DNA of 64,000 nt from Blasia pusilla (GCA_050084515.1 CM114271.1:35154001-35218000), one strand, 5' to 3'; positions 1,707-63,832 are shown, counted from the first letter of the stretch. Notes: generated by a model not told the origin, from the letters alone. Numbers and translations: made by a program.

Positions 1707-1718
1707 TGGTATCAGAGC
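1707..1718 (+). promoter_or_regulatory. Primer-binding site (initiator tRNA-Met type)
   Basis: TGGTATCAGAGC directly after the LTR end; the same PBS is at 31259-31270. Confidence 0.92.
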
Positions 1719-6390: not shown

Positions 6391-6688
6391 GTTATAGTGA
6401 AGCTCATGAGACACATGAAGTGCTACATTTTTACTCACACGAAGTAGGGAAGCTTAATCTTGGTTCATCACTTGAGCGCGATTATCTTAACTAGGGTTAG
6501 TTAATCACAGTTAGTTTAACTTGAGATTATGGTTAAGGTTAGGGTTAGGGTTACTTGTACATACCTTATATAATTGAGAAGGGGACCAGCCTCCATTCAT
6601 TCTCTCATTGCAAATTTCATTCTCCACGGTGGTGTGTGAGTACGAGAGCCGTTTTCCACCAGTTAAGCTTCTTTAGCAATTTTCCACA
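6378..6688 (+). repeat. 3' LTR of Copia copy 1
   Basis: Direct repeat of 1403-1706; follows the PPT and is followed by the TSD. Confidence 0.95.
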
Positions 6689-6865
6689 GAAAGGACGCCC
6701 CTTGATCGGTCTCCTCAATATGGGCGCGGACGTCAACCTATCCTTGAGCAACTGGAATGCTCTCTCCTGTGGATCCCTCCATGATGATTGCAGTTACATG
6801 GATGGAAGATACATCTTGACAAGTGCAAATTCTTCTAGAAGCAAAAAGTTAGAACACACAACATA

Positions 6866-34700: not shown

Positions 34701-35937
34701 GTAAGTACAAGTGGAGATTACATCACATAGACGTGAAGAATGCCTTCTTGAATGGAGATCTATACGAGGAAGTATATATGACTCAATCACATGGATACGA
34801 GCATCCCAAGTTTCCATTTCGCGTATGCAAATTGAAGAAAGCTCTATACGGGCTCAAACAAGCTCCAAGAGCTTAGTATGGCAAGATTACACATGTCCTA
34901 CAAGATTTAGATTTTAGGGTATGTAATTTTGACTCCTCGTTATATATCTTGAGAGGACAAGATCATACGGTTCTCATTGTGTTGTATGTTGATAATCTCT
35001 TGATTATTGGGAGTACTGAAGAAATGGTATAACAAGTCAAGCTTAAGTTACAAGCAGAATTTGATATGAAGGACTTGGGAGAACTCAAGTACTTCCTTGG
35101 TATTAAGTTTATCAAGGTTGGAGAGAGCATGTGGTTACTACAACAATAAAATGCTCTTCATATACTTTCAAAATATGGTATGATGGCTTGTAAGCCAATC
35201 TCTACACCGTTGGACTAGAGCGTGAAGCTAAGAGTGGATGAAGGAGAGCTGCTTGCAGATTCTAATATATATAGGCGTATGGTTGGAAGTTTAATCTATC
35301 TAACTATAACTAGACCAAATTTGAGCTATGTTGTTGGCCTAGTGAGCCAATTTATGCAAGCACCTTGAAAACCTCACCTTCATGCTGTGAGGAGGATTAT
35401 GCGGTATGTGAAATTCTCTATTCAATTCGGGCTTCAATTTGAACCTTTTCCGAGTTTTCAATTACAGGGATTCACAGATGTTGATTGGGCAGGAAGCGTG
35501 TCTGATCGACACTCCACATTTGGTTATTCATTTACTTTGGGAAGCGCAGCTTCCATGACGACGTGGAGGTTGTGGAGTTCTTGCGCACTGGTGTCATTGC
35601 GAGTACAGTGAGTGCTAGGGAGCGGGATCGGATCCTACAAAGAGCCAAGAGGTTCAGGTGGAAGGGGACTCACATTTTGCGGGTATAGGGAGATGGTAGG
35701 ATACGAGTTGCTAATAACCCTGTGTTTCATGCTCGTACAAAGCATGTTGAGGTGCATTATCATTTTATCAGAGAAAAAGTACTTGCAGGAGAAATAGATC
35801 TTGTGTACATAGGTACACATCAGAAAATTGGTGACATCTTTACAAAGGGATTATCAAGAGATAAGTTTGAGATGTTTAGAAATGATTTGGGCGTTAGAGA
35901 TATCGATATGAGCTTGAGGGGAAGTATTGAAGATTGA
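31760..35937 (+). pseudogene. Copia gag-pol of copy 2, disrupted
   Basis: WYIDSGASNHMT protease, RCDGGGEY integrase, [28 protein letters not shown] and HARTKHVE RNase H; several stops. Confidence 0.94.
35552..35707 (+). mobile_element. Gypsy pol fragment replacing part of the Copia RNase H
   Basis: Translates HDDVEVVEFLRTGVIASTVSARERDRILQRAKRFRWKGTHILRV*GDGRIRV, matching HDDALVLEFLRT...KERDRVLQRAKRYRLEGTHILHMWEDGRVRV at 48616-49074. It is absent from Copia copy 1. Confidence 0.9.
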
Positions 35938-36449
35938 GTTACAGTCAAGCTCATGAGACACCTGAACTGTTACATTTGGTACTCACACGAAGTAGGGAAG
36001 CTTAATCTTGGTTAGTCAGTTAAGCACGATTATCTTAACTAGGATTAGTTAATCATAGTTAGTCTAACTTGAGACTAAGGTTAGAGTTAGGGTTACTTGT
36101 ACATACCCTATATAATTGAGAAGGGGACTAGCCTCCACTCGTTCTCTCATTACAAATTTCGTTATCCATGGTGGTGGTGTGTGTGTGAGAGCCATTTTCC
36201 ACCAATTATGCTTGTTTAGCAATTTTCCACAATCCGTGGCAATGCTCGTAACCTTCTCTGGCTCAACCTGACAGACATACTCATGGAATGCTTTGATATA
36301 CTCAATCCAACTAAATCTTCCCTCTCTTGAAGTTAGAAAAACTCGAGTGAAATCCATTTAGAGATACCTTGCACATAACATAGATACCTATTGGGCTATC
36401 ATAGGTTGAAGGCGTTGCTCCAATTGAGCAATCCTTGCCATAATTGGCT

Positions 36450-37465: not shown

Positions 37466-37629
37466 GTATCGTGACAAGGATTTTTTTCAAGTTAGATAAG
37501 ACATCGAGGTTCAAGGAATCCAACCCCATTTATGGCTCCAAGCCCATCCCAATAGAGCATCGGTAAAGTATAAGCCCAAGGTAGATTATTTACTTTCGCT
37601 TGAAGAGATTATAATTTTCAATCATAGAG

Positions 37630-39070
37630 TAGAAACACTAAAAGTCCCAAGTGGTTATGTTGGGGCCTTACAGAAACAGCTTCTCCGAAAAAATTTGGGT
37701 GCTCTCAAGTCACATGATTTACATGTATTCATGCAACAACTCTTGCCATATAGCTTGCGTGGTCTAATGAAAAGTTCAATGAGGAAGACCATTATACGTA
37801 TGTATAGGATATTCAGACATCTTTGTGTCAAGACATATGATCGTAGAGATTTTCAATCCCTATCACATGAAGTTTCCAATACCCTTTGCCTCATAGAAAT
37901 CCACTTTCCCCTTGCCTTCTTTGATGTCATGACCTTCCTGATAGTCCACCTTGTCGAAGAGCTAGACATATGTGGTCCAGTTTCTTGCCGATGGATGTAT
38001 CCTATAGAGAGGTATTTGGGTGTGCTAAAGAATTACGTGAGATCTCGGGCCCGACCTGAAGCTTGACAATATGTGGCTGAAGGATACATACTCAATGAGG
38101 CACTTGGTTTCATCATGGAATACATGCAAGACTTCGACGTTATAAAAACAAGAGTTTGGGATGCAAGCGAGGAGGAAGGTGTTAATGGTGAAGTGTTGGA
38201 AGGTGTGGGCATCAAACAACAATTTTCTATGGAACTCATGGAAGTGGCACACACATATGTTCTTCAAAATAGTGAATGTCTGATACCTTGGATGGAGTGA
38301 GTATCCTTTTCAAATTCGTTCATGAATTGTTTTGCCGAATGTTCAAGGAAGCACAAATGGGTGACTTTAGGTTTTTAGAGTGGATATGTGTAAAGATTAG
38401 AGAGTGTATTTCCTTAGGTGAAGATATCGCTGAAATGGTTGTACGTCAAAGTGTCAGTCCCCCCTTCTCGATGGCACACTTCATGCAAAAAAATGAGAGC
38501 TTATGGTAACCACTACAGAGTAGAAGATGGTAGTTTCTACATTTGACTCAGGGATAACATTGTCTTTTTACAAGAACTTGACGATGATCAACCATGAGTC
38601 CAATTGTATCCTTATGTGGGCATATTTTCAGACATTTTGGTGTTGGACTATGGGGGTTTAGATCAACCAGTAGTATTGATGAGAGGAAAGTGGGTCGAGT
38701 CAAGATGGGGTAGAAGAGAACCTACCATGCTCTATAAGGAGAATGGATTTTTGATTGCAAACTTTCGAAAGTGTATTACATTGAACATCGATCCCTTTGT
38801 ATTCCCTAGTCAAGTAGAACAAGTGTTCTATGCAGATGTTGAAGAGAAATTTGGATGGAAAGTTGTGATGCAAAAGTATGCTAGATCAAGGAGGGTTGTG
38901 GGAGGAGGATTAGACCTTTCAACAAATGACCATATGGAACCCACAAAGTTTAATGCCCATACCACCCTAAACATTGAACTTCCTGATACAACATTAGTTG
39001 GAGCCATTCAATTGTCAGAGGTTGAAGTAGCTATAGCCAACATAGATTATGTCATCGATAATGGAGAAGA
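37630..39070 (+). pseudogene. CACTA/EnSpm TnpD-type transposase, C-terminal part (DUF4218 + DUF4216-like), disrupted
   Basis: LKSHDLHVFMQQLLP, FFDVMTFLIVHLVEELDICGPVSCRWMYPIERYLGVLKNYVRSRARPEA, MAEGY..EALGF, DPFVFPSQVEQVFY. No terminal CACTA TIR was identified. Confidence 0.9.
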
Positions 39071-40749
39071 TACCAAATCACGCCTTAGACCAATATCTTA
39101 CCTCAGAGGAAGAAAAATGAGCAAAATATTGGCTAAGTTTTCTTTTTTAGCTTTGATTGTTCTAAGGCAAAGTTTGCTCCATATTTGGTTATTTGAACAA
39201 TGGTACATGGTTAACACTTTTTCCATGGATCTTTATGAGTATTTTCTATTACCAAGGAATTTTTTGTTGTAACTTTACTATTTTTAATCCAATTATTAGT
39301 AATCTGTAGAGATCCCTTCGGAACTAATAAGTTTGGTCTGTGATGTGTATTGCTTATTGGACTTAGGCGGGTGGCCATCATATGTCAGGGGTGCTTACAT
39401 CTTCCTTGTCAAGGGAACCCAAGGTAAGTATTCAAGTTGCTATGGTTGCCATTGGAACTGACAAAGAGCCCTTTGGTACTCATGGTGTTTTTTATTTTTC
39501 CTCTTCAGATCTCCCTACACGCCAACTAAAGATTATTGGTAGTGATGTGGGAATAAAGCAGGGACTTGTTTGAGGAGGAAAGAAACCATATACTAGAGAG
39601 TCCAAATAGTAGATACCATCGACTATGCGAGAAGCGTCTTGCATATGTGAGAGAGGAAACAAAGAAACTCGGCTTACAATTTCGGTTAAAATTATACATG
39701 CGCCTCACTATTCTTTGACTTTGAATTAAGGTTTTCGATTTACTATTGTACATAATTTTCTTTGTTGGCCTCCATATCCTTTTATATTTCTTAGAGATAT
39801 GTGCACTATGTTGGTAGTTAATGTTTTTTCATTCTGATGCTTTTGGAGGGAATTGACAAATTGGAAGAGAATAAGCAAGGATTTGGTACGAAGACCAAAA
39901 GGATTAGCGAAGGAGCGTGCTCTTACACTCCAAAAGTGTACAATACTAGAAGTATGAGTAGGAGAGCTATAATGTGAGAGGACTCATCTAAGGAGGATGA
40001 GAAGCCATATATTGTGGAAGCAAATCAGATGTAGAGTATGACGGTACTCCTGATCAATCCAGCCTTGATGACTATGATCAAGTTAGAGTTGCCAAAGGGA
40101 AATCACCCTTGAAAACAAGTAAAAGCCATAATATACATATGATTATCTTCAAAGTGTTTCCATGCTATATAGTAAGTTTTTCTTCTTTCTTGCTAATGTG
40201 TCTGTATTTTCAACCTTTGACCTAACCTTGATTCTTTTATGATGTCACAAAAAGGGCCCAAGTCCTTCCAAAAAAAACATAAGGACAATGCAAAGGGTAT
40301 GCAACCTTCTCAATTTCTTGGAATGATACAATGGTCAATAATTGGGATGTATACAAGTTTCCAAATTCCACCTCAATGGAAACCAAACATGTGAGGTATG
40401 TACTTTGCTACTCATTCAATTAACAAATTCCCTTTGTAGAAGACCAATAAGGATACACATGCTCTATATCTCATGTTTGTAGCATAATATTTACAATTGC
40501 ATCAATTTTTTTTGTATAGGTTCACTTCATCCAACATAGGGCCAACATGCAGATTTCTTTGATGCTCCTTTCTATGCACCAAATACAACCCCTCAACCAA
40601 CTCCTTCTGATCCTCGTGTACCATGCCACTTGATAAGGTTCCATCCTAATTATAACCACTTCCACAATGTGCCATGGTTGTTATTGAATATTGATTTTTT
40701 ATAATATAGTTTTGCATAGGAAGTACATTCATTTACTATCAATCATATC

Positions 40750-47393: not shown

Positions 47394-49074
47394 CTATACA
47401 CCTTCGTGGGTGCACGAATCAGAAGGCCGGGTGCTAGGTTGCCCCATCGTTAGTCGCACATAAGTACATCGAGGACAAAACCACCTTCTAGTAGGAACAA
47501 CATCCATACGTGGAGTCAAACACATCATGTGCCAACCCCTAGAACACCGATCACACACCAACATACGGGCTGCGTTACCAGCAGACCCACACAACATGCA
47601 CCTCAAGCTAGCACGTATCATGGTTAAGCTTGGGTCAACAGTACCATCCACATTTGGAAGATGACATGGCGTACAATTACGCACATGGTCCTTCCAAACA
47701 ACTCCATCACGACCCTCCAACATGAGAACTCCAGAAGCTAACACCTCGCCCACTCGTAAAATAGTGCGGCCTGCCATCACATCCAACGTTGTCGGTGCAA
47801 TCTGCTGCAAATAGACATAGCCCTCCACATGGAATCTACAAATTGATGGTTGATAACCTCCATCCCAAATGGTTGCATACCGCAACGTATCCATGTGTTG
47901 AGCAATGGCAAGATTCTCAAAGGCTATCGACATAACTCTCCGAAAGAGCTCTGCCTGCTGAGAACACACTCTCATCCACATCTCTGGGTAATCAAGGTTT
48001 ACCACCTCACTGGACTCCCGAATAATTGCTGCGGGCAAGTCTGGATCTCGGCTGTATAACAAAAAATAAGGTGAGAAGGAAGCCAAGGATCCTTGGCGAC
48101 TGAACCTATACCCCATGGCTAACCATGGCAACTGAATATCCCAGTCTCCAAGATACCCCTTCTCTAGGCCATACTTGCGCAATGCCCTCTTCACCGTCTG
48201 AACCACACGCTCAGCCAAACCGTCCGTCTCTGGATGATCTCGAGACCTGGTCTGATGGATCAATCAACGCCTTGTCACACAAGACCTGAAACTCACCCTG
48301 AAACTCTCTACCCTGGTCGGTTAGCACTTCAGCTGGTGCACCAAAATGACTAAGCACTCTATCAAGAAATGCATGCGACGTTCCTTCACTTGCCTTGTCA
48401 GGTAATGCCACCAACTCAATCCACTTGGAGAAGTGCTCCACCATCACCAACACATATCGATGATGTCGTACACTCAACGGTAACGATCCCGCAAAGTCCA
48501 CACTCCAATGATAACCCAACCCCATAATAGGCAAGGGATGTAACTGTGGTATAGGGGCATTGAATGATGCCCTCACCCGGTCACAAACCATACAACGTGA
48601 CACCAACTGCTGCACCTAAGTCTGCATGCCACGCCACCAATACTGACCAAGGAGTAAGCTATACATACGCTTTACCCCAAAATGTCCCAACTCCTCATGG
48701 GCATGTCGCACAATGCACTCTCTCTGAGCCAAATGCAACACTACTCGTACTCTACCATCCTCCCACATATGGAGAATATGTGTTCCCTCCAATCGATATC
48801 TCTTAGCACGTTGAAGAACACGGTCTCGCTCCTTGGGACTCACTATGCCTGGCATCCTACTGGTCCGTAGGAACTCCAACACCAACGCATCATCATGAAT
48901 ATCACACTGATCCGTACCACCATCTCCAACCTTAGGATCTGAAGGTTGGCCATCTACCCTCTGACTAGAGTAAGATGTCATGTGGTCCTCCATACTAGAG
49001 TCCACCCCTAACCAACAAAAAAAGGCGGATGCATGCCAACCTGACACCATCTCCTCATCAACCTCCCATGCCAT
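47394..49074 (-). pseudogene. Gypsy integrase (HHCC + DDE) with C-terminal PHD finger (47466-47600)
   Basis: HAHEELGHFGV...CMVC; DFAG, TDQGREF, GLAER; PHD C4HC3 CMLC-x11-CDRC-x4-HMMC-x14-CPRC with the typical P..W.C ending. One stop and one frameshift. Confidence 0.93.
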
Positions 49075-49163
49075 CTAGCCCCAGTTGCATCCTCTTGGCT
49101 AGTACATGGGTTCCTACTCAACCCATCAGCATCAAGGTTGGCAACTCCAGGTCTATGTACCAC

Positions 49164-50450
49164 CTAGAAGTCATACTCCTGTAAGATAAGAGCCCACCGT
49201 GCAAGCTTCCATGTAAGCTTGTCAAACTCCATCAACCACTTGAGCGGCTGGTGATCAGTAACAAGGGTAAACTGTGTGCCAAACAAGTAACACCTAAAGT
49301 GTGCCACAACCCACACTACTGCCAAGCACTCTCCCTCATATGAACTGTAGCGCAACTCCGCTGCATTATTCGAACGACTTACATAGGCCACCACAAACTC
49401 CATGTGCTCATCATCATGTTGTATCAACACCGCTCCAAGTCCCAACCTACTCCAATCAGTGTGTAACTGAAATGGGTGCCCTCTGATAGGTCTCCTCACG
49501 ATAGGCGCCGTCACCAACTGGGCCTTGAGCTCCACAAAAGCTCTCTCCTAATCATCTCCCCAGTGCCACTCCTGATCTGATTTCAGCAATTAGTTCAAAG
49601 GCTTTGCCATAACACTAAATCCCTTCACATACCTCCGATAGTAGTTCGCCAATCCCATGAATGCCCGAACTCTACTCACATCTACCAGACAAGGAATAAG
49701 TGCAATAGCCTCCACCTTTGCTTGCTGAACTCCCAAACCACCTGGATAGATCACATGACCCAAGTACTCAACATCCTCATGGAAGAACTTACACTTTCTT
49801 GGATGCAAACGTAGACCATGAGCTTTCAACCGCTCAAACACAATCTGCAAATGTATCTGATGCTCCTCTAGCGTGTTACTGAACACCAAGATATCATCAA
49901 TGTAACACTGAACAAAATCTAACCTTGCAAGGATCCTGTCCATCACTCTCTGAAACTCGGCAGGTGCATTCTTCAACCCAAAGGGTAAGAATTTCCACTG
50001 GTACAAACAATCCTTGCCATGAGAGTTGACACCCCAAAATGCTGTCTTGGCCTTGTCACTCTCTCGAATCGGCAACTGATGGTATCCTGTCCGAAGATCC
50101 AAAGTATTGAAAATTTTTGCATGTCCCATCATATCAAAGATCTCCTCAGGTGTAGGCATGGCATACCTATCACCCTTGGTTTGATGATTGATATGACGGT
50201 AATCTCCACACATATGCATCCGCCTATCCGTGTAGTTGCCATGCACATCCTTTTTAGCAAGCATGACTGTGGCTGATGCATACTCTCCATGCGACAACTC
50301 CACTAATCCAGCCTCCAAAAGGTCCAACGTCCTTCTCTGAATCAGGTCCCTCTCCATATCACTATATCCGTAGGGACGACGGAAGATTGGAGAATCACTA
50401 GCCAAATCAATCCGTATACCGGGTCCATCCAAAGCGCCCAACTCCTTCAT
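49164..50450 (-). pseudogene. Gypsy reverse transcriptase and RNase H
   Basis: MCGDYR, LDLRTGYHQ, KTAF, LPFGLKNAPAEFQR, YIDDILV; RNase H LHTDWS, YSSYEGECLA, TDHQPL, KLARWALILQEYDF. Confidence 0.96.
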
Positions 50451-50859
50451 GCTAAAGGCAAAATAACTCCTATAAGCACGTAGAAATTATGTCAATCGTT
50501 GTTTCTCACCTCCCGTAAGCTTGGGCCCTAGTAATAGATCCCAAGTCTCCTCCATTGGTACACTAGAGGGAGAGGACGACGCCATTGGCTGCTATGCAAC
50601 CCCCTCACAAGATGGTCCACCCTTATCTACACCATCATCTGAGCAAATAACTCCTCCACCAGCATGAGCAACCAACTCCACATGCCCAGCCATTACATCC
50701 CATTTACTCCAAGGATGCAAAATACTATTCTCCTCGCCCCCAACCGATGTCTCTACCGTCTTGGTAGCCATCGAGCTCATCACAAGGGGTGGAAGAGCCA
50801 CACACATAGTCCGAAGTCGACGTTGCTCGGTCATACCAACACTCAAAATCCAAGTCAAA

Positions 50860-51450
50860 CAATTCAAGTCCATGGCCTGACCCAACACATGAAGTCGTGA
50901 AGCCTCAGAAATGGAAGCAACCGTTGTCACACGAGTAGCAAATCCCATCGCACGCTCTCTCTCATCCAAGATACTATCCACTATAAGGCAAGGATCCCGC
51001 TGCAGTGCATCACATGCTCGACGTAGAACCTCCCTAGGCAACAAGTTTGTCCACCACAAGAGTGGACGATGTGCACGCGAGCCAACTCTCGCTGCATCCA
51101 ACAACACCGCTGGTCCAATCCAAGACCGCACCTCATGAACACTTGCCATCATCCGGGTCCAAGTGTCACCCAACAATGGAAAATTCTCCAGAATGTAAGC
51201 TGGAGCACGTGCCTGATGAACCTGAAGATGTCGTAACACCCGTAACATCTCCCAAAATAATCGAGACCTAGGGTTATGTAATCCCTTACCACGACCAACA
51301 CATGTATGACCCTGACATGGCCATCCAGCAATCACCAAATCCACAGGACCATCCTCTCAAGGTCCTTCGCCCCCAACAATGCAATGTGTGATGGCAAAGC
51401 ACGCTGGTACCCACAAATAGATGATGGCGGCAAAAACTCAGGATATGTCC
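50860..51450 (-). pseudogene. C5-cytosine DNA methyltransferase domain within Gypsy pol, motifs IV-X
   Basis: VDLVIAGWPCQG (motif IV, Cys codon 51315-51317), RSRLF (V), YILENF (VI), SRAHRP.LWWTN (VIII), ERERAMGF (IX), VLGQAMD (X). Confidence 0.92.
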
Positions 51451-51546
51451 GTGTTGCGATTTTTCACGTCCGGACTTCCGTAACATTCGGCACGTCGCCG
51501 TCGAAAGGACGACGAGACCCAACGGTCAGCTCAACGGCTAGAAAAG

Positions 51547-51554
51547 TATAAATA
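51547..51554 (+). promoter_or_regulatory. Candidate TATA box of the insert gene
   Basis: TATAAATA followed by a pyrimidine-rich leader, ~280 bp upstream of the ATG at 51828. Confidence 0.5.
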
Positions 51555-53011
51555 GGGCAGAAGTCGCTTATTTCCGGTTTCTCATTTTGCGATCTTCATT
51601 CCTCACTCCTCACTCTCCCGCGTAGCAGCTGATCAGATACGAAGGGGCATTTCACGCGGCGACACATCGCGAGTCGATAGGACGGAACGAGAGCGAGATG
51701 GTTCGACCGGCGATATCGGGATGATTCGAGCTAACCACCAAGGCGAGACGAGCTCCCATCTCGACATCAGCAAGGCGATTGATCAAGGGATTCGTCGTGG
51801 ACATAGGCGGAGGCATTTCCGGAAAAAATGACGAGGAAAAAAACACAAGCCAACAAGTCCGGGAGCTTCACTCCCAAGTCCATTAGGACTCCTGCGTCAG
51901 CTTCTCTTGCGCCTCGTTCGGCGAATGAAATTAGGCATCAGGAAATCGAGGAGCGGGAAAGGGAAGCGAAGATGCACAACCAAGTGCTTCTGGCGAGACG
52001 TGTTCAAGCGGCGCTAGATAAACAGAACGAAGAGGCCGAGACGTCGCAGGCCTTGAAGAAAAGGATCGCCGACAAAAAGAGAGAAAAGAAGCGTCTGGAC
52101 GCGTCGGTGAGGAGGGCGGAATCGGCTAAAGCGAGGCAGGAAAAAGCGATAGCCATCGACGATAGCCCAGCCCGTCCAACCGCAAGTGTTGAGATGCGGG
52201 AAATGTCCCCCACGAAGTCGGGGGACACAATCAACATAGTGGAAACAACACCAGTTCAACTCGATGACGACGAGGTCATGAGGACCGCCAACGTGGAGAT
52301 GGTGGACATGGCGGAAGAAGCCGGAGAGCGGTCATTCTCGACTCCAAGCCCGGCGGAGGACATCGACCTCTATTGGATCGACGAGTTCCCAGTCGATTTG
52401 CCAGCCCCTGTCTCAGACAAGTTAGCAGGTCAAGAAACCGACTCCATTTTCGAGCGGGTAAGAGAGGTTAGGTTTTCTTAATTATGTGAATTGCAATTCA
52501 TTGGGATTTCGGTGTAGCTTATTCCTCTTGTCCCGGTTCGACGGTGGTAAAGCAGATGGCACTCATGGAGGGCCACAACGCCCGAGGATTCCCACTGCCG
52601 ATTAAGGACAATGGAATACGCCCGCAAAACTGATCCGACGAGGATATCGCAAAGCCAAAACAATCGGCGATTTACAAAGATCCACGTGGGCTTTTCCTCC
52701 CTTCTATATTCAGCCTTACGACGAGCATGGAACCCAAGCTCTGGTTACCGAGGAGGACTTGGAAAATCTCGACACATTCTGGAGGATGCGATTGAGGCCA
52801 CGGAATTCAGCTGGATGAGGAATCTGCATTTCTTCATCTGGGATGGAAATCACAGGTTCATGGCGTGGACCAAGTTTGCGGAGGAGCGCCCCAACTCATT
52901 GGAGGCACATTTCTGCGTGAAGGCAGTGGTCCTTCACCCATACCCTCATCACATGGCGACGGTGGAGATGGCAATGCATGCCATGAACACGTAAGTATCT
53001 TTAACACTTTC

Positions 53012-53770
53012 CCAACTCGTCGGACTCCGACGAGTTGCTCGATTGATGAATGGGTTAGGTTTGTTTAGGCAGAAAGCAACTCGTCGGACTCCGACGGGTT
53101 GCTAGATCGCACTGATTTTCGAATGTCTTTTAAGATTGACACTTGTTGGACTCCGACGACTTGTTTGATGGAACATAGATTTAACTAGTTTTGGCCCAAA
53201 GCAAACCGCCGAGTCCGGACGGGTTGCTGACAAAGCCGCCTTGTGAGGTTGTTTTTAAGAATGCAACTCGTCGGACTCGACGAGTTTCTCGAAAGTGACC
53301 GCAGTTTAGAAGGTTTTGCCCCAAAGCAACCCGCCGAGTCCGACGGGTTGCTTTGCCTCGGTTATTTTTCCTAATCAACCCGCCGGACTCCGACGGGTTG
53401 CTTTGGGGCAAAACCTTCTAAACTCCGCGGTCACTCGAGAAACTCGCCGGAGTCCGACGAGTTGCATTCTTAAAAACAACCTCACAAGGCGGCCTATCGA
53501 GCAACCCGTCGGACTCGACGGTTTGCTTTGGGCCAACAACTAGTTAAATCTATGTTCAATCATACAAGTCGTCGAGTCCGACGAAAGTTGCAATCTTAAA
53601 AACATCTGAAAAGCGTGCGATCCAAAGAACCCGTCGAAGTCCGACGAAAGTTGCTTACCTGGCATTAGCAAATCTGAATGCAACCCGTCGGACTCGACGG
53701 GTTGCATCATTTAGCTTGTTGCTAGAATCCGACCGAAGTGCGTGACGACCGGTCGAGTCCGACGGGTTGC
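53012..53770. repeat. Array of ~13 palindromic 26-27-bp repeats (GCAACCCGTCGGA[C/G]TCCGACGGGTTGC) with ~35-bp spacers; central part forms a ~600-bp inverted repeat
   Basis: Units start near 53012, 53077, 53139, 53201, 53263, 53326, 53376, 53439, 53501, 53564, 53627, 53680, 53745. Arms 53068-53351 and 53376-53662 are imperfect reverse complements. Confidence 0.92.
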
Positions 53771-55911
53771 AGTGAACCCATGTAATTGCCTGACGGGTTG
53801 AGTTTGGATGTGCAGGATTGTATCGAGGGGAATGTTACCCACCATTGGATCCGGATCGCGATCGGGTGAGGAAGGTGCTTACGACGCACCTAGGAGAGTA
53901 GAGGGAGTTCTTGGGCGATGCCCTCGTCAATCAGATGCTTGCAAAGGGTGCTCAAATTAAGAAGAAAACTTGGGCAAACAAGTTTATTTCTCAAGATGCA
54001 CCGTAACCATCCTTTGCTGGTCGAAGATACAAAGCCCAAGAAAAGCGCCTTTGGACCGAGCCGAGCGGAGGGAGAAGGTATCTGCGTCGAGCGCCAAATT
54101 CATCAAGGCGCCAGATTCTGCTGCAACGAAATACACGGCGAGCAAGATGCAGCGATACATCAAGCATTCTCAACCCGAACTTGGTCCGGAGTTCTACAAG
54201 GAGCTCAAGGCGATTATCAGCGTCGGCCGGAAGAGGGATGAAGATCCGCATGGTCGGATTGGGGAGAAAGTGTCGATGGATCGCGTGCATCGTTTTGCGT
54301 TATCCGGGATTAGCGAGTTGGGAGGATACGATCGATGAAAATCGTCTCGAGGGCTCGAGAGGCCGGAAGAGGGCGGCACACCATCCTCCAGGTGTGTCCG
54401 ATCCGGTGATCTCGCATTTCGCCACGCCGAATGGCCGTTCTAGGACGCGCGTTATGGTAATCGGGAAGTCCCGTCTGGGGATCCGCAAGCGGAGCTCGAA
54501 GATTAGAGCCCATTCGCCGGAAGCAAACCTTGAAAGTTCTGGAGATTACGAGGTTTGGCTCGACGACATCCGGGACAAGCCAACCAAGAACCCTGGATTC
54601 AAGACCATGTTCAAGGTTTGCGTCCTCCCTCAGGCAGAGCTTGACGAAGAAGTAGAGGGTAACAAACAGGATCAAGCGAAGAAGAAGCGAGATCTAAAGG
54701 AGCAGACAGCCGATAATGTTCAACTAAAAGCTGCCCAACGGATGGTATTCATGTACCTCATCCAATGTAAGAACGCAGGTACGTGGGGAAAATTGCCGGT
54801 AGCCTTGAAATTGTGGGCTTCGCCGCCGGATGCAGAGACATTCTCCATGTACGACGTGGAGATGGGTCAGCACATGTCGGATTGGGAGGTGGAGAATTGC
54901 CCCATTTGGCTCGACTTCAACGACCCTGAAGACATCGCGGATAAGGACTTACAAGTGCTTCATGATGCAGTGGCCTCAGGACAAGACGACATCCCCAATT
55001 TCGCCCACCAAGACTTCTTCGGAGGAGATGCAAGAAGAGCAGGCCCAGAGATAGTGAGTTGGCTTCAAGGTCCGGACAGCCAAAGACAAATCCACAAATG
55101 GTCTCAAAGGCAAGGCGAGGGAAGGGAAAAATTCAGAGGCCGAGACTTCCCAAAGAGAGCTCTGAAGATGAGAGGCCGAGGCGGATTCGCCCCGGACGAG
55201 CGGGAAGAGAGGGTCGGACCAAGTCCTCGGCGAAGAAAACGCCACGAGAATCCGAGGTCATCGAAACCCCGACAAGCCGTCCCGGACTAGAGAGAATCGG
55301 AAGCGAGAGGTGCCGGGTTGTCCCAAGGAGAATACTGACCCATCATCCTTGGGAAGACACAGACAAACAATGACCCGGACAAGCATCCTCCTTCATTTCA
55401 CCTCTTTCTTTGGATGAGCCGAATGAGCACTTGGTTCTCAGCGTCGACAAGCGCCATCGAAAAATTGACAACGCAGGAAGGAAGCTCCAACTAAACGGGC
55501 ACGCTGCTGGACGGTGAATGGAGTGGTGGAAGAGGTTGCGGTGGATCTCTTGATCGCCGATCGCCCCTCGGGGTTGCGACTTTGGGGCTTAAAATCCGCG
55601 GACGAGGTACCGAGTGGAATCGCCGCTCACTTATGACCAGATTGCACTTTTGTTCTCCTTTGCACGCCTATCGAAAGTGACAGGGCTCGCTTCTTGGTGT
55701 TGATTGGAGGGAGCGAGGACGAGCTCTTCAACCTCCAAGGCGTCAAGAAGTCGCTAAAGTGGAGGATGGCACAATCATGGTTCATCAAAAACAAGTACCC
55801 ACTCCGATCCGCAACGAGTTAGATTCGGGTAAGGCTATATTCTGCACAATAATTTCAATTATCTTATAATGATGTGTATAATGAGAGTCGATCTGGTTTT
55901 TTTTGTCAGTG

Positions 55912-56246
55912 AGCAACCCGTCGGGAAGGCGACGGGTTTCGGGCTTAGAGCAGCCCATGCTCGGTTGAGAGCAACCCATCAGTTTTCGACGGGTTGCATC
56001 TTTCCCACATACGAGGGAAAACGGTGTACGCAACCCGACGGGTTGCGATTGATTTTGTTTTGGATGCAACCGTCTAATAGCGACGGGTTGCTCAAAGAGC
56101 ATGGGCTGGTCTGGCCAAAGAACCCGCCGCCTTCCGACGGGTTGCATCCAAAACCAAAATCAACTTGGAAAACCAAAAGCAATTGCAACCCCGGGTTCCG
56201 GACGGGTGGGTCCGGACAAAACAACCCGTCGGACTCAGCAAAGTTG
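55912..56246. repeat. Second, more degenerate array of the same palindrome (~7 units), in the last intron
   Basis: GCAACCC...GACGGGTTGC units near 55912, 55971, 56030, 56065, 56120, 56185, 56221; three more partial units at ~57041, 57089, 57159. Confidence 0.85.
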
Positions 56247-58683
56247 ATCCAAAGTCGATTATTGAAAATCTTCTCTAGGCAACTTCTTTAGTTTCGACAT
56301 TGTTTTGTCTTTGATTTGAGATGGACCACTCCTACGTGTCGCTTCATTCGCCCGAGCACAATTTCCAGGTGTTCAAGATCCGGATCCTGTGGATCCATGC
56401 TCGATGGGTACAACTTAGATAGTTTGTACAATTCCCCCAGGAATTTACATGCAAGGCGAGACCCGCTTCGAGGAAGGAAGGAAAAGTCGCCACCGATGCA
56501 ACGCTCATCGAGCTCTGCTCAAGGCCGGGTGACTTGGTGTTCGACTTAGTGGGCCTTTCAGGGCGAGTATCGAGGCGCTGGCAGAGTGGCAGAACATTCT
56601 CCGCCTTGAGGGAAGGCAGAACTGTTTGACCTTTGCAAGGAGGCAAAGCAGAATCTGAAAGGCTCGTTGGGGTGTACAACTCTCCACCGGGGCCGAGAGC
56701 TCGGTTCCAGAGCCACCCTTGGTAGTGACTCCATCGTCACTTCCAACGATTCCCAAAATTGGGAGGGCAAGGCCGAAAGTGATTTTGCAAGAGCTCTCTG
56801 ACGATGACGAGTGAGTTCAAAGAACTCAATGACCTAGCTTGACTGGCAGCAGCGTTTGGAGTAGGGAGTTTTTGATAATTTGGCAAAAGATTTCATAGAA
56901 TAGATCAAATGTACTGATTCGAGCTTTTTCGGATGATATAAAGTAAGATTTTTTCGATCGATGGTGGTGCTTGTAAATGTTTGGTGATCATTTTGTCTTT
57001 TCGAATGTGATCGTCTATGTACTACACGGTCTTCTACTTTGCAACCCATCGGATTTCTCCTGCTTGCAATTTTCACTTTATGACCATCGCAACCCGCCGG
57101 ATTTCTCCTCCTTGCAACTTTTCGCTTTTTGACCATTGGACCCTTTTACCACCTCCAGGCAACTCGTCGATTCCGACAAAGTTGCCTCGATCGGACCCTT
57201 TTGGATCAGCGATCTGGCGGGCTTCTTCCTTGGCACCTTCCCTCAACTCGTAAAGGCGGCGAGGCTTCTTTTCTTCTCTCGACGTGTTGGATTCCTTCTA
57301 CCTGTGCGGTTGCCATAGTGGTATTACAGGGGGACGGAGTAGATATTGATATTGGATGGGTGTCACATTGCAGAGCGTACAAGGTATACTGCCGAGGAAG
57401 GCGGTGGGACTCAAGACAGGTTACATGGGACCGTTATGGTGTACCTAGTGGGGGCCCAAGGCTCTCGAATTCGCCAAAATTTTGGATCCCCGTCTACAAC
57501 CGGCCAGAGGAGCCATTTGAATCCCAGGACATTCCTTTGGTATTGTCACCGAGGAGAGTTAGGAGTAAATTTGTAGATGACAAGGCTGAAGAAATCATAG
57601 ACTAGGTTCAATGTACATTTCCGAGGTTCCTTCGGAGGTAATAAAGGACGAGATTTTTTGAACCCATAATGGTGTTTGTAAAAGTTTTATGGACTATGTT
57701 TTTTGGACTTGTGGAGGTGGTGCAAGAGAAAGGCCCAAAGAAAGAAAGTCGCCCAAGAACAACTCAAGAAGATTGTACAAGATGATAATGCAGCCAAGTC
57801 ACTCCATTGACCTCAAGCTTAGAGGAGACAAGGGAGATGGTGTAGGCACTAGGGAGTCTCCAGGGTATCCAATGAAGGAGATAGAGTGCTTGATTGCTGT
57901 TGTAGAGGAGGGTTTGAACCAAGGGGATGGATCTGATTGTTAGGGCCAAGAAATGAAGAATAAGGGGCTAAGAAGAGGTCAATGGAGGCTGAGCTCAAAT
58001 GCTTGGAATCTTGTGGGCTAGAAGATTCCTCATGGAAGCCTAGAGGACCTCATTTGAAGGCCATAAAGCTTGAGAATCCAAGGGAGAGATCTATGGAGTT
58101 GAGAGGATCCAAGGAGTGATTTCTGGAAGATTTGTGTAGGTGGAGCTAAGTGGAGGTGTGAACTGAGGGCGGGGCTCGAACTAGATTGAGAAGAAGCAAG
58201 CATGGGAAGAATATAGAGGTAGATCTCACCTTCAAGCATGTCCAAGAGACAGGTCGAGCCTATGCCATCAATGTTGCTCAAGAGGCTTTAGTTAGGGTGT
58301 TGAAGTAGATGAGGTAGAAATTTCAGGCAGTAGATGCCTTGGAGTAGATGCTTAGGGTTGGCATCCGGGTGGTCCTCCAACAAAAATACCAAGGGCACTG
58401 CTTTTTGTTGACCGAGATGAGGAGATGGAAAAATGTTTGTAGTGGTCTTATGATGTCTACTTTTTTTTCGCCCCAAGGAAAAAGGAGGTTTTTTTAGGGC
58501 CAAATGTGGACCATTACCTACTCTCTTCTAAAGATTTCATGGATTTGAAAGCAAACAAAAATTTCAAATATGTCATAAAGTTTTGAAGAGAGGAGGCGGA
58601 TTTGGCCCTTTTTTTTGAAGAGAGACTCTCCTCTCTTCCTCTCTTCCTCTCCTCTCTTACTCTCTCCTGCCAGAATACCAGGC

Positions 58684-59460
58684 CCCGGTGCTAATCCCTC
58701 CAAAGAGATCTAACAATCGAATACCCTCCTCCAGGATACACCACACAATGGGTGTGGTATCCAAGGGTGTCATCGTTGCACTCCCTGCTACCTCGGGTTC
58801 CTCAGACCTGTCACGCTCCACTGCAAACGCCTCGCTCCACACGGTCTGCACATGCTCATCTGCCAATCGTCGAAGCTCCTCAATCGAGCCCCACAACGGC
58901 ACCTCTCCTCCACAGAATGATACGGCTACGATAACACTCCTCTCCATAGAAATGTCAGGAACGGGACTATCCTCTGCATGGACATGCCCCTCAATCAAAT
59001 CACTAGGCCAAGTGATGGCATTGCTAAATGCTGCTAAGGTCGCCACCTCTCCTGGCCATCGCTCGATCACTACACCTATGAATCGAACGGGTAATGAGCT
59101 AAGGCGCCCATCACCTGACTGCCATCCTGGTCTGTAGGACGTTGACTCCTCCCAATAATCCAGGGAAAACCCCATTAGGTATAACACTGCTCCACCAACC
59201 AAGACGTTGTAGGACTGTGCATCAGTCACTATCGCCTTGGCTCGCACCACGGACTCATCTGTAGGATATCCCGGGAAAATCCTCACCACGACCTCATGTC
59301 GGGGGATATACTGTGTGGTACTTGCTCCACCCAAGGATGTCTATATGCGGAATGGACAACGCTCCACATCAGCTCTCGTCAAGCCCAATCCTCTAAATGA
59401 CGCTTTCCCCAACATCAAGGTTGCGCTCTTGAATCCAACAAGACGCGCCGCGGACTAAAA
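58684..59460 (-). pseudogene. Gypsy aspartic protease, linker and DNMT motif I
   Basis: RRVLLDSRAQP (D-S-G site, mutated) near 59420-59450 and YNVLVGG; in-frame downstream GIRLLDLFGGISTG (SAM-binding motif I, 58684-58713). Confidence 0.85.
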
Positions 59461-60297
59461 GCTCTACCTTCAGGACTCACCAAATGGAAGACCGCTCCTC
59501 GGTCATCCAGCAACACAACACCAGGAGAAGCCATGGCACGCTCTATCGCGGGTCTAGCGGGCATCTCCGCCATCCTAGCAGCCGCAGCCTTCCATGAATC
59601 TGACGTGGACGGCCCGAGCATCAGCTCCAAGGGCAGGTCCATCACCTCCTCTACAATCACCTCTAAATGTGATGCACAAACTACAACTCCACGCTCATAT
59701 AGCGTAGTGGCCAGCCGAAAAGCCTTGGCGGGCGTTCCCCCAACGTCATAACATTGGAAGCAGAAAATAAAGGAGCGCGGTACACAATGGTGGCCGCCCC
59801 CAACAACGTGCTCAACACATGCCCCTCTTGAGCATAAACAATAGGAGTCATCGACTCGCTTCTCCCATCGCCCTCCGTGCGTGCACTCCAACAACATCAC
59901 CAACTGTTTAGGAACTCTGATCAAGACCCATCGATGGGGTCCTCATCGCCTCGGACAACGTGAAAGACGAAGGAAGCCTAGTCTGTTTCCTGGCTTCCCC
60001 TCGCTGTGGATCCAACTCTACATCTCCTCCATGCATCATAATTGTGGCTGCATCCATCTAGGCAACCGCGCACATCCAACCAGGATCCTCCATATCTCTG
60101 GTTGCTCCATATGATGTCGATGCCACGGACCCGACATCGGGTAATCTCAATGCCATAACGGCAATCTACTCTTGTAGCTGATGTATCTGAGCAGCCATCC
60201 TAGCCTCACGCCCAACATCTCCCTCGACGCGTCTAGGTGGTGGGACTCTACCTCCTCCACGCGGAGCTCCACCACCATGTCAGGCAACTCTAGCTCC

Positions 60298-61682
60298 TCA
60301 TCCCCCAACGGGACCACCTGGTGCACGATCTCTAGGCCCACACGGACCGATTACTCGCTCTGGTGCCTTGTCTGGCCCTTGGTCCGGACGTAACTCAGGA
60401 GGTAAAATGAAACACCTAGCGCGTGTATGACCATACCTCTGACAATAGTCACAGTGATAACCTCTTGGTGCAACACTATCTCCTCCTCCATGTTGAGGCA
60501 TACGTCCATGACCCTCACGAGTGCAATCGCGCTGATGATGGGCTCCAGCACATGACCAAAAAGTAATAGTAGGCGGCTGCTGCTTAGCCGCATATGAAGG
60601 CGCAGGTCTTTGTGGCACGGCCTCCCGGTATCCTCCCTAAGCTCGTGGTGCCACAGTCGACCTATCTCGGAGTCCACGTTGCTGCACAGGTAGTGCAGAC
60701 AATCGTGACTGCTCTCACCCAGAACCCATGGTGGCTACGCTCTCCTCCGCCATGTTGCGCTCAATGTTCTTGGCGTTCCTAAAAACATCTCTCAATGTAG
60801 GGGAGGTGTTCATAAGAAGCACCCCTCCCGCATCCGTATCCGCAGGGTCCGGTCGAGCATCGCATATCATGACTGGATAGCCTGAGCCTCTGTCACCCCC
60901 GGATTAACGTTGATCAACCGGCGCAAGCGAGTGTAAGCCTCACGCAAACTCTCATCCGGGCGCCTCTGGAAGTCGTGGATGCTCCATAACTTCTCTGTCC
61001 GTACCCCCTGGAAGCTTGCCCTCAACTCAGCAAAGAACTCAACCACGGAGTTGAACTTGGGAGGAACTCGACTAGACGGTGCAACTGCTCCAGTGCAAGT
61101 GACCCCTCCTAAAACATCACTAGTGGAAGAGGAAGTAGCCTCTCCTAACTCCTCCTCCTCATCTAGGAACGGCTCCGTCCATGACACATAGCGTGGGTCA
61201 TAGTAGAGTCGCCATGCCTCAATCTATTGTGCATATCTGTAGAAGAACTCATGGTAATCGTCCATGGATGCCCCCTCTAAATATTGGAACATACCGTTCC
61301 ATGCTGTAAACGGGTTGAACTCTCTAGAGTTCCTAGCCCGCTGTGAGTCACACCAACTCCTAAACTCCGCAATGAAGTCGTGTAGCTCTATGGTGCCTAC
61401 AGCACCCGAAAACCTACATGGTCCTCTACCCCGGTCGACCATCTCGTACGCCCAACTGGTAGGACCACTCAATGTGTATGGTGGATCACTAACACACTCC
61501 TTTACATGTTCCCCCTCGTCTGAAGACGACACAGAAGGAGATTGAGATGGTCTCTCACGTGGAGACCCTCGAAACCTCGCACCACTCCGGGTAAACCCTC
61601 CAAAGCTACTCTCAGGTCCACTACCTCGCCTCTCAAAATCCTGAAAAGACGCCGTGATGGCCCTCGTGCCCCTCTCACACAA
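60298..61682 (-). pseudogene. Gypsy gag
   Basis: FQRRPDESLREAYTRL (major-homology-like region); zinc knuckle CDYCQRYGHTRARC (CX2CX4HX4C); fragmented. Confidence 0.85.
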
Positions 61683-62849
61683 TCACTCTCAACCTCACGA
61701 GTAATCCCTCAATCACTCATCCTAAACATGCGGCACTCGATCTACACTCTCCCTCCCCGTGACGTGTAACGTGCGGCAACAAGCGGCGTGGTGCGGCAAA
61801 TCGACCAGGCTATCATCTCATCGACAACCTACCCTCAACTCCGAACATCCCACACAGGTCTATGTCCCCTAAACCACATATATAAATGATGCTCTCAGCA
61901 TCCATACAACCCAATATCCCCAAATAAACTACCCAAATCCCAGAATTCCTACGCATGCAGGGTAAAGGACCAGAATGGGTAACCTTAACACATGTCGATG
62001 TCGCTCCTCAGCAACTGCAAATCTCGATCCCAACTCGGTCGTGGAGACAACTCCTCTAATCAGAAAGTCATATTCCTCCCGTATTGACGCTCCTCAAAAC
62101 TCCTCGATGGACACTGCAATTCCAGCAGAACGGTGGGGCGTTGCAGGCGGTATAGAACGGCTAGGAACGGCATGGCCCTTGATGGTAGGATCCGACACTC
62201 GGCAGCATACCCTCCTCAATCAACAATAAACCCACACTCTGCTCCACAATGACAGTGCAGCTCCACGATCGAGACGGTGCGGTGCAGCCACGAGCAGCAT
62301 GGCGCGGCAATCGGCGGCACGTTGCGGCTACGGGCGTCACGGCACAGTACTCAATCGTCATCGAGCAGCAACCAATCATAACATAGCAGCATGAAATCAA
62401 AACTCAAACACCATAACCGGAGGTCATCTACCATCACTGGTTGATGACGAAACTGTGATGACGGTGGCGGCCAAACCAAAGTACATGCTGGCGGCGCAAG
62501 TCAGAGAATCAACGGTGGTCGTGGAAGACCCTCCACTTCATAATGGCGGAAATGGCAATCAAAGGGTGGAAAACGTCCAAATGCGGCTTTGAGCAACGCT
62601 GGACAACGACAACGACCGACGGTGGCCGGTGGATGGTGGATGGTGGACGGTGACGGTTGATCGTTGATGGTGACGACGGACCGTTGACGGTGATAGTTGA
62701 CCATTGACGGTGACCGTTGACCGTTGACCGGTGATGGTGACTATGACGGCGACGACCTCCGCCGGCGTGGCGGCTGGTTTAGGGTTTGAACAATTTAACC
62801 CTAAAAATTGCCTAGCAATGGCAATTTTGCAAGATTGACCATAACTTTT

Positions 62850-63832
62850 TACTCGCAACTCAAAATTGCGCACTGTTTGCTGCACAACGTGCATAGCTTC
62901 ACGATCTATGACGAAGTCAAAAAATATTTGGAATTGGACATTCCGGTAAAAATTGATGGGGACTGTTGTAAAGCCCAATGTCTATTTCTCCTACACAAAA
63001 TTCGGCAGCACTTCCGTGCTGATTTCTCCCAACGAAAATGTAAAACGTGTGAAAATACAAATCAGCAAGCTACATGGTGCTCCCGAGAGCACCAGCATGG
63101 GGAAACCCGCCCCCATAATCAATTCCTATCAGAAATTGGGTAGTGCTTCCGCGCGCCACTCTTCCACACAAAAAATCGGCAAATGCAAAGAACAATCAAA
63201 GGAGCCCTTGCTCCGGTGAGCACTCCCATGAGCCGCTGAACCGGGAACACGGTCCCCAACCTGAAAAAATAGTGAGTGACGAGCGAGCTCCCCCATGAAG
63301 CTCTCTCACTCTCTCATTCTCTCTTTGTAAATTAAGATCCAATCTCTCTCTACACCATCTCACACCATAGCTCTCAAAGGTGTGCACTCTCTCTCATGTC
63401 AAACCAAACCCACTCTCCTAATGAGAGGCTTGGGTTACACTCATAAGGCAAGGGACCATAGCTCCGCCGCCTCATGCCAAGAGGTTCAACAAAGAGAGAA
63501 TGAGCTTTCAAGCTCCCTCTCTTGGAGGTATATCCCCTTTCCTCTCCCAAGCCCTCTCAACGGTAACCTATGCTCGTAGGTCACCTCCTTGGCTGTTGAC
63601 CCGCTGTAGCGGATCAAGGGCTACTTCCCAAAGTGGAAAGTCAACTATCCCCAACATGGAAACTTATCCGAAATTGTAAGTTTCTCTATATGACCTCTTG
63701 AGGCCCCGGGAAACCTGCTCTCTCAGATTTCCCGGGGCCTCAACAAGTCATTCTCGACCTCCTGGGCTTGTACTCCACTACTCATGCAAACGCTCTACTA
63801 GATCCCACCGATTTATTCTAACAGTTGTGACA
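62850..63832 (-). repeat. LTR-like repeat (family C), second copy; may extend left to ~62400
   Basis: Colinear with 1-958, sharing the ...GTGACA terminus; left end and TSD not identified. Confidence 0.7.

Follow-up and report, generated by a model that had tools for sequence, protein, structure and literature searches.

A decayed multi-copy gene inside a gypsy-DNMT3 retroelement of Blasia pusilla and the possible amino-methyltransferase affinity of its tail

What kind of gene has split the DNMT3-like domain of a Ty3/gypsy retroelement in Blasia pusilla, and is its product related to the amino-methyltransferases? The question is raised by a 64,000-nt stretch of the B. pusilla assembly (GCA_050084515.1, CM114271.1:35154001-35218000), called the window below, to which all coordinates refer. 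An initial annotation of the window had described, at 51828-56814, a spliced gene on a mobile insert that joins a ParB-like part to an amino-methyltransferase (MTase) part of the N6-adenine/N4-cytosine (N6A/N4C) kind. On balance, and with modest confidence, we favour the reading that a transposon-like gene of four exons, which exists in many copies, is represented here by one that has decayed and no longer functions, within a gypsy-DNMT3 retroelement, and that the tail of the gene product is amino-MTase-like. The earlier reading as a whole is partly supported. As known so far, intact members of the family are confined to this organism and to a single protein of the liverwort Riccia sorocarpa.

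A disrupted gene and its family

The strings quoted in the initial annotation were located by exact match in the six-frame translation, and all of them are present on the + strand in the order that it gave. They fall on the following gene model:

51547..51554, + strand: TATAAATA (TATA) box, 274 nt before the ATG and some 100 nt in from the left edge of the insert
51828, + strand: start codon ATG
51828..52457, + strand: exon 1, ATG and 210 codons open, donor cgg/GTAAGA
52458..52555, + strand: predicted intron 1, 98 nt, GT..AG, phase kept
52556..52990, + strand: exon 2, carrying the ParB-like motif (placed on a three-frame print)
52830..52868, + strand: FFIWDGNHRFMAW, frame 0, exact string match
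52842..52856, + strand: DGNHR, inside FFIWDGNHRFMAW
52991..53815, + strand: predicted intron 2, 825 nt, filled by a palindrome array
53816..55828, + strand: exon 3, with several frame changes, including the region common to Riccia protein P0001
55535..55828, + strand: first half of the MTase-like part (motif IV to about motif VIII), at the end of exon 3
55541..55573, + strand: VDLLIADRPSG, frame 2, exact string match
55829..56320, + strand: predicted intron 3, 492 nt, GTAAGG..GAG, frame 2 kept, with a second palindromic block inside
56321..56814, + strand: exon 4, with the motif-I-like stretch, GRTFSAL after it, and two or more frame changes ahead of the TGA
56469..56486, + strand: RGRKEK, frame 0
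56504..56545, + strand: LIELCSRPGDLVFD, frame 2, exact string match
56504..56563, + strand: motif-I-like stretch LIELCSRPGDLVFDLVGLSG, in exon 4
56585..56608, + strand: SGRTFSAL, frame 2
56812..56814, + strand: stop codon TGA

Exon 1 is open, charged (E/K/R-rich) and helix-prone, as the earlier description of a charged N-terminal stretch had it, and it matched no Pfam family. All three candidate introns have a GTAAG donor and an AG acceptor, and introns 1 and 3 keep the phase. The proposal of a spliced, TATA-preceded gene thus agrees with its signals, from the TATA box and ATG through the three introns to the TGA, but no spliced reads were seen at the predicted introns in two RNA runs, where the RNA depth is about 0-10. 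The missing joints are no evidence against splicing, because of this depth and because most of the reads come from diverged relatives. Two of the quoted strings carry less than was claimed. RGRKEK is little informative, as it occurs a second time at 9867-9884, and it is dispensable, as RKEGKVATDATLIELCSRPGDLVFD is continuous in frame 2; the same frame runs unbroken through RKEGKVATDATLIELCSRPGDLVFDLVGLSG. The pattern 'SGR..I.AL' stands as far as SGRTFSAL in frame 2, but in its full form it mixes frame 2 with frame 1 (SIEAL).

Relatives were searched for with phmmer, using a 427-amino-acid (aa) open reading frame (ORF) from the middle region (54007-55290) against 1,835,955,588 cluster representatives. 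One protein was returned at E≤0.001, a 488-aa hypothetical protein of R. sorocarpa (E 5.3e-5, 31% identity; the name comes from one source), referred to as P0001. It is collinear with about 54114-55831 of the window and ends close to where exons 3 and 4 meet; its start lies beyond the ParB-like region, and it is also without the motif-I-like region. No Pfam family was found in P0001. Used as a query in its turn, it retrieved only itself among proteins of near length, nothing among longer ones and nothing among 1,187 shorter candidates. The search pattern was fitted by 178 stretches of metagenome contigs and 59 of viral contigs, none of which was confirmed as a related locus. In the ESM Atlas the middle region of the window met only unnamed eukaryotic clusters, the best at 0.92, a kind of score that shuffled proteins reach 4-10% of the time. 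In the open-access literature searched, no description was found of a bryophyte repeat with such a gene.

The present copy is dead and cannot encode a working protein. When P0001 was compared with the region by tblastn, three collinear segments were obtained, each in a different frame:

54114..54302, + strand: tblastn segment to P0001, frame 0, E 0.031
54727..55035, + strand: tblastn segment to P0001, frame 1, E 1.9e-12
55535..55831, + strand: tblastn segment to P0001, frame 2, E 2.4e-8

On the three-frame print, exon 2 contains a stop and shifts twice by -1 (from frame 2 through 1 to 0), the frame changes several times in the first part of exon 3 and at least twice in exon 4, and the MTase-like part has in-frame stops in frame 2 at 55634, 55820, 56420 and 56627. 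The earlier description of a gene broken across frames is confirmed by the three segments and these four stops. Some of the frame changes could be assembly errors instead of real decay. Among the read differences listed, single-base differences at 51837, 54188, 54390, 54572 and 56440 are carried by a minority of 13-41% of the read depth, and a 2-base difference at 55336 by 33%.

Contigs of two DNA runs of the source species (X1 and X10) were matched to 51500-57300 (5.8 kb) at 88% identity or more. In run X1, 30,679 contigs matched, with 7,370 at 99+%, 10,805 at 95-99%, 11,011 at 90-95% and 1,493 below 90%; in run X10 the number was 2,190. The gene is a member of a multi-copy family in its organism, and the mobile nature assigned to it earlier is supported by these counts and by likenesses that span 99+% to below 90%. 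Small shares (0.07-0.17) in runs labelled organism B, organism C and air metagenome carry no information on range.

From the two RNA runs, 118 and 191 reads were obtained, of which 82-83% continue into unlike sequence; the reads come from relatives and not from the window copy. The relatives concerned are about 90-95% alike and are represented mostly by the last exon. Reads accumulate at 56350-56931, where the first mates map to the minus strand and the depth is 6-11, compared to 0-2 over most of the remaining gene. At position 56602, where the window has C, all covering reads have T (32/32 and 18/18); the species must therefore possess a transcribed, possibly intact last-exon paralogue. The consensus of the loose read ends after 56563 (30 letters, read by eye) has three single-base additions relative to the window, which together restore one codon through the glycine-loop region.

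The methyltransferase-like tail

Intact members of the family would encode a long protein that begins with a charged N-terminus, followed by a region with a GxxR (DGNHR) motif, a conserved middle domain to which no fold is assigned and a C-terminal domain with the permuted beta-class layout (motif IV before motif I) of N6A/N4C amino-MTases. We regard an MTase-like fold in this tail as fairly probable. The case leans on the Riccia protein, because the window by itself is barely above noise in a frameshift-aware scan.

A local beta-class profile was built from 43 natural YhdJ-like MTases; of 74 IMG/VR loci, 44 had been chosen, and one was then dropped. Residues 361-488 of P0001 scored 13.5 bits with this profile (E 1.7e-6 for one target), a score reached by none of 2000 shuffles, the best of which gave 9.8. 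The match places P0001 387-484 on profile positions 69-160, about 95 collinear residues; IDLLLMDLPT is set on vDlIitDpPY, and the alignment continues through the next helix and strands to position 160. Among 1,669 sequences, comprising P0001 and all six-frame pieces of the window, whole P0001 was the top match. A comparison of the two-sequence family with the MTase alignment by hhalign gave a P of 6.6e-4. In the ESM Atlas model of P0001 (residues 373-488), all ten neighbours listed are class-I S-adenosylmethionine (SAM) MTases, with template modelling (TM) scores of 0.52-0.63; they are led by PF01555 clusters (TM 0.61-0.62 by query). The best named feature matches are the amino-MTase families PF01170 and PF05175, and then PF01555.

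The window repeats this layout at the level of motifs. A frame-2 read-through of exon 3 and exon 4 scored 3.3 bits with the local profile (reached by 1 of 2000 shuffles), and exon 4 alone scored 4.1 bits (0 of 2000). Profile positions 64-77 fall at 55526-55567 and positions 236-251 at 56501-56548, in one frame across a phase-keeping intron and in the permuted order, and among 41 + strand pieces between 51500 and 57300 these are the only two loci with positive scores. In 200 second-order Markov simulations of 64 kb, the motif-IV-like pattern occurred with a mean of 0.07 per window and PGD[LIV]V[LIVF]D did not occur. In the real window the ParB-like, motif-IV-like and motif-I-like patterns each occur once, on one strand, in the expected order and within 3.7 kb; the patterns were written after the sequence had been seen, which makes the chance figures generous.

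Several results weigh against this assignment. The profile result comes from one self-built profile of one MTase subfamily, and the hhalign probability was just 27%. The first half of the window domain alone scored -0.3 bits, a value reached by 16 of 2000 shuffles. When the frameshift-aware scan was run over the entire window on both strands, the first half ranked 4th and the second half 2nd, and unrelated peaks were similar; with looser penalties the first half fell outside the top 8 on its strand. For the read-throughs with X, for whole P0001 and for its residues 361-488, Pfam gave no PF01555 match at E≤10, a limit at which the HMMER filters still drop most matches above E of about 0.1; the window pieces had none at E≤1. 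NCBIfam and PHROGs likewise returned no MTase match at E≤10 for the pieces, the X read-throughs, P0001 or its last 128 residues. A phmmer search of PDB sequences gave nothing below E 0.7; its best matches, an odorant-binding protein (E 0.71) and another protein (E 0.75), are not significant, and neither is a match to a precorrin-6y methylase glycine loop (E 0.89). The Atlas model of P0001 has a predicted local distance difference test score (pLDDT) of 0.33, and TM values above 0.5 mean little for short stretches. AlphaFold2 run without an alignment on P0001 produced an unusable model (pLDDT 34.6).

Membership in PF01555, as first proposed, is not supported: neither the pieces, nor the X read-throughs, nor the intact Riccia relative match in Pfam. 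What stands of the proposed MTase-like layout is the permuted order, motif IV before motif I, and the above-shuffle profile scores; what does not stand is agreement with the Pfam model or with a canonical motif IV. On the fold, the evidence is similarly divided: the Atlas neighbours are all SAM MTases, but the AlphaFold2 model is poor and the curated libraries are silent.

The motif IV that the initial annotation had called altered is altered in both species, with D-R-P-S in the window and D-L-P-T in P0001; tblastn aligns 'VDLLIADRPS' of the former with 'IDLLLMDLPT' of the latter. The canonical form is (D/N/S)-P-P-(Y/F/W), so that in D-x-P-[ST] the second proline and the aromatic residue are missing. 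The motif I region of the window reads D-L-V-G-L-S-G and then runs into disturbed frame, where the canonical loop is of the D-P-F-x-G-S-G-T-T type. In amino-MTases the aromatic residue of motif IV stacks on the flipped base. Because this base-stacking residue is missing, we propose that intact copies would be a SAM- or DNA-binding pseudo-enzyme, or an enzyme of changed chemistry, in the service of the element. Judged from the motifs, intact copies are probably not canonical writers of N6-methyladenine (6mA) or N4-methylcytosine (4mC). While the disruption, the insertion, the multi-copy state, the single relative and a weak profile similarity are shown by the data, the fold, the absence of canonical activity and a role in the life of the element are what we infer.

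The resemblance could instead be due to chance, the gene encoding an orphan, lineage-restricted repeat protein with no kinship to MTases or ParB, and its motifs being coincidental readings from three frames. We hold this to be unlikely, although of the alternatives it survives best. It accommodates the silence of all curated libraries, the equal scores of unrelated window loci in the frameshift-aware scan, the scatter of the quoted strings over several frames, the recurrence of RGRKEK elsewhere and the near lack of relatives. It does not readily account for the conservation of hhDLLhxDxP[ST] in the Riccia protein or for the 13.5 bits over about 95 collinear residues that no shuffle reached, nor for ten SAM MTases among the ten Atlas neighbours listed, nor for motif-IV-like and motif-I-like matches that share one frame across a phase-keeping intron with beta-class order and spacing.

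The DGNHR region and the insert

Another reading is descent from a phage or prokaryotic ParB-N6/N4-MTase fusion that gained introns and was carried by a plant transposon, with intact copies writing 6mA/4mC or reading DNA. It draws on the same MTase-like evidence as the reading that we favour and adds to it the motif in exon 2, where DGNHR matches, at the level of the motif, the GxxR 'P motif' (Box II) of the ParB/Srx fold. The pattern hhDG.HR..[AGS] has a chance mean of 0.01 per 64-kb window in the 200 simulations. The sole library match over DGNHR, and exactly over it, was DUF1015, which lies below threshold (E 0.099, with 12 bits where the cut-off is 25.8) and which we take to belong with the ParB-like families. 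The GxxR P motif is described for the ParB-CTPase fold in PMC12704722, which also presents ParB-fold/N6_N4-MTase fusions as a feature enriched in phages and prophages, and PMC4738411 reports uptake of MTases from phage ParB-terminase loci by eukaryotic algae.

The profile tests of the ParB part came out negative. Pfam ParB_N (PF02195), NCBIfam and PHROGs gave no ParB match at E≤10. A profile of 20 YbdM-type (DGFHR) ParB-like proteins, the only set diverse enough for a profile, aligned the motif correctly, but with -1.6 bits and rank 295 of 1017 rows. AlphaFold2 on the 75 in-frame residues gave a pLDDT of 54, with strands after one helix and no helix after GxxR. The profile tests are handicapped, as two frame changes split the upstream half of the putative domain. 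The ParB/Srx assignment made in the initial annotation thus failed every profile test and comes down to DGNHR with a poor model; we consider it unproven from the sequence, and a ParB fold around DGNHR appears possible but doubtful.

Some reference sequences were set aside in the course of this comparison. Three phage MTases (Cote gp47, StAnnes gp64 and PhiR40_1) were considered as ParB-MTase references and rejected, as they are annotated as DNA methylases only and no ParB domain is named; no more than 33 nt of their ORFs precede the MTase match, too little to hold an N-terminal ParB domain. A Rac-prophage ParB_N protein was rejected as a profile source, with relatives that are 98-100% identical (80 kept of 213). 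In the Rac prophage region of E. coli K-12, a 101-codon open frame at 1393-1695 of the locus has a ParB_N match of 30.2 bits, and IMG/VR relatives extend the frame to 277 aa without an MTase part; by its sequence it looks like a truncated prophage ParB-like gene.

Further points count against descent from such a fusion. A tblastn search of 50,697 phage records gave a best E of 0.6, to a CDGP-domain protein of phage Ximenita that is irrelevant here. About 900 codons lie between the two parts, including the conserved non-MTase middle domain, motif IV is without its second proline and aromatic residue in both species, and the Riccia protein, being without a ParB-like part, leaves the link unconfirmed. 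We therefore judge this descent improbable as a complete account. A prokaryotic origin as such is plausible by analogy and is not needed to explain the data.

The insert that carries the gene was delimited from the minus-strand host retroelement. In its DNMT3-like domain, 7.3 kb separate motif I from motif IV, and the C5-MTase piece starts at the PCQ motif while its missing start is found at 58684-58716 (-), so that about 7.2 kb has been inserted into the domain. In a comparison with human DNMT3A, ORF 50592-51356 (-) matched from residue 71 (the PCQ motif onward) of the 285-aa catalytic construct (E 1.4e-8). The earlier placement of the gene on an insert is confirmed by this split.

51441..58665, + strand: insert of about 7.2 kb dividing the DNMT3-like domain of the minus-strand Ty3/gypsy element, ends approximate
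58684..58716, - strand: DNMT motif I, LLDLFGGISTG
51309..51341, - strand: PCQ motif, DLVIAGWPCQG
47394..51440, - strand: downstream part of the host element, with the DNMT3-like domain from motif IV on, reverse transcriptase, and integrase with C-terminal PHD finger
58657..62000, - strand: host element on the other side of the insert
47394..49074, - strand: integrase and PHD finger (Integrase_H2C2, E 9e-9; PHD, E 1.6e-10)
49590..50486, - strand: reverse transcriptase (RVT_1 in Pfam, E 5.2e-34)
50592..51356, - strand: C5-MTase piece (PF00145, E 9.4e-7), best PDB sequence match DNMT3A

The insert may represent two adjacent insertions, a gene-bearing repeat at about 51441-57330 and unrelated DNA at 57330-58665. 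Just downstream of the gene, a 173-codon open frame at 57084-57605 (+) has no family match, and after it 57589-57687 shares 73% identity with 56887-56982, in the 3' untranslated region of the gene itself; 57084-57687 may represent either a partial duplication or another gene carried by the insert.

The palindromes are found in the non-coding parts of the gene and beyond it. The 12-mer half-site CAACCCGTCGGA, with up to 2 mismatches, has 27 matches in the window compared to 2.68 expected by chance, and 26 of the 27 lie in 53013-53800, 55914-56233 and 57042-57101, that is, within introns 2 and 3 or shortly after the end of the gene. The full palindrome of about 25 bp has the form CAACCCGTCGGA-C-TCCGACGGGTTG, and four pairs of half-sites are perfect or near-perfect 24-25-bp palindromes. 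The arrays are:

53074..53656: foldback in intron 2, 583 bp, 85% complementarity (inverted repeats I5 and I6)
55913..56145: second palindromic block, in intron 3, a weaker foldback
57042..57200, + strand: third cluster of CAACCCGTCGGA half-sites, downstream of the gene

Strand-switch joints were observed in RNA reads at 53013-53064 and 53101-53400, from which it follows that similar hairpins are transcribed somewhere in the genome.

It could also be that the gene is not transposon-borne: it would then be either a pseudogene from a host gene family that has expanded or a gene fragment that some other carrier took up and amplified. The TATA, intron and stop layout is that of a normal gene, and transcripts from relatives 90-95% alike, mostly of the last exon, would suit a host family. 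This view also draws on what the insert lacks. No transposase or reverse transcriptase ORF was found within 51441-58665, and no terminal inverted repeat, long terminal repeat (LTR) or target-site duplication was found for the insert; no inverted partner of the 13-mer at the left end occurs near the right end, and this 13-mer has 12 matches with up to 3 mismatches where 13.7 are expected by chance. As these features were not found, the label 'transposon' rests on copy number and insertion, which weakens the reading that we favour. Against a host-gene origin stand the tens of thousands of diverged contigs that match the gene, the precise interruption of a retroelement ORF and the 12-mer palindrome family shared by introns and 3' flank (26 of 27 matches within 53013-57101), which is typical of mobile DNA; we find such an origin quite improbable.

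Very improbable, in our view, is the further proposal that a bryophyte-type repeat carries a domesticated phage-type ParB-fold/amino-MTase whose intact members, still transcribed as judged from RNA reads of relatives 90-95% alike, would recognise the element's own 25-bp palindrome arrays, as ParB does parS, and then mark the element DNA by non-canonical methylation or shield it by non-catalytic binding.

Elsewhere in the window, two copies of one copia-type LTR retrotransposon (1400-6700 and 30950-36230) are 86-95% identical and about 29.55 kb apart. Blocks of 300 bp at 147-757 and 63024-63632 match at 83-93%, which suggests a further repeat family at both window ends. A remnant of a CACTA/En-Spm-type TNP2 transposase lies at 37500-39272 (+), with DUF4218 at E 5.4e-24 and DUF4216 at E 2.4e-5, the latter below the cut-off.

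Comparison with known systems

With the beta-class MTases, for which PF01555, E. coli YhdJ and its phage relatives served as reference, the tail shares a weak, above-shuffle profile similarity and a motif-IV-like strand that comes first. It begins motif IV with hydrophobic-D-L-[LI]-h-x-D, has a 'G-x-hhhF' strand after the first helix, and in the window the motif-I-like 'PGDxVxDxxxGxSG' follows motif IV by about 170 profile positions. It differs in that the family fails the Pfam model, in that motif IV is DRPS or DLPT rather than (D/N/S)PP(Y/F/W), in that the reference 'HPTQKP' stretch is not kept in the window read-through, and in that the window domain stands at the end of an intron-bearing protein of about 1,200 codons. 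The conserved D-x-P-[ST] offers a natural test of a beta-class scaffold without the aromatic catalytic residue.

In phage ParB-MTase fusions the two parts are adjacent. Here they are separated by about 2.7 kb of coding sequence, the ParB fold of the window is undetected by profiles, and the window has no detectable similarity to the phage records searched. What is alike is a GxxR-type motif upstream of an MTase-like domain, on one strand and in mobile DNA (PMC12704722; PMC4738411).

METTL14 is a catalytically dead amino-MTase partner that has EPPL in place of DPPW. By analogy, an MTase-like fold with a degenerate motif IV, as here, may suggest binding or scaffolding over catalysis; MT-A70 is a different family, and we know of no partner enzyme for the present protein.

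Eukaryotic proteins with a bacterial-type amino-MTase layout have precedents in N4CMT of bdelloid rotifers, a 4mC writer of bacterial origin according to PMC8885841, and in DN4MT1 of Marchantia, for which the preprint (bioRxiv 10.1101/2021.02.12.428880) reports a canonical TSPPY motif and clustering with prokaryotic N4C MTases. The sole relative of the window gene is likewise from a liverwort. Unlike DN4MT1 as described there, the window family has neither the TSPPY motif nor a Pfam match, and it is a repeat family rather than a host gene. If the MTase-like fold is true, a land-plant mobile-element family would have its own amino-methyltransferase-like protein; what would be new is that, within a land-plant lineage, such a protein is borne by an element, has introns and carries an altered motif IV. 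The immediate value of the dead copy is as a pointer to intact, transcribed relatives, the MTase assignment being weak.

The nearest counterpart of the host element is KnitGypsy-Dnmt3 of the charophyte Klebsormidium nitens, like it an LTR gypsy element with a DNMT3-type domain in Pol, as given in PMC5890265. The window copy is interrupted and decayed, and it has a PHD finger after the integrase, a word ('PHD') that is absent from the main text of that paper. The other repeats of the window (copia and the CACTA-type TNP2 remnant) and the Riccia relative are indicative of a land plant, so that gypsy-Dnmt3 elements may be more widespread than reported for Klebsormidium. The host element is arguably as noteworthy as the gene inside it. 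Should the MTase-like fold hold, plants would have another type of DNA-modification module carried by elements, here inside a DNMT3-type gypsy element, and the gene would be a concrete case in which to study whether the marking of host DNA is manipulated or mimicked by transposons.

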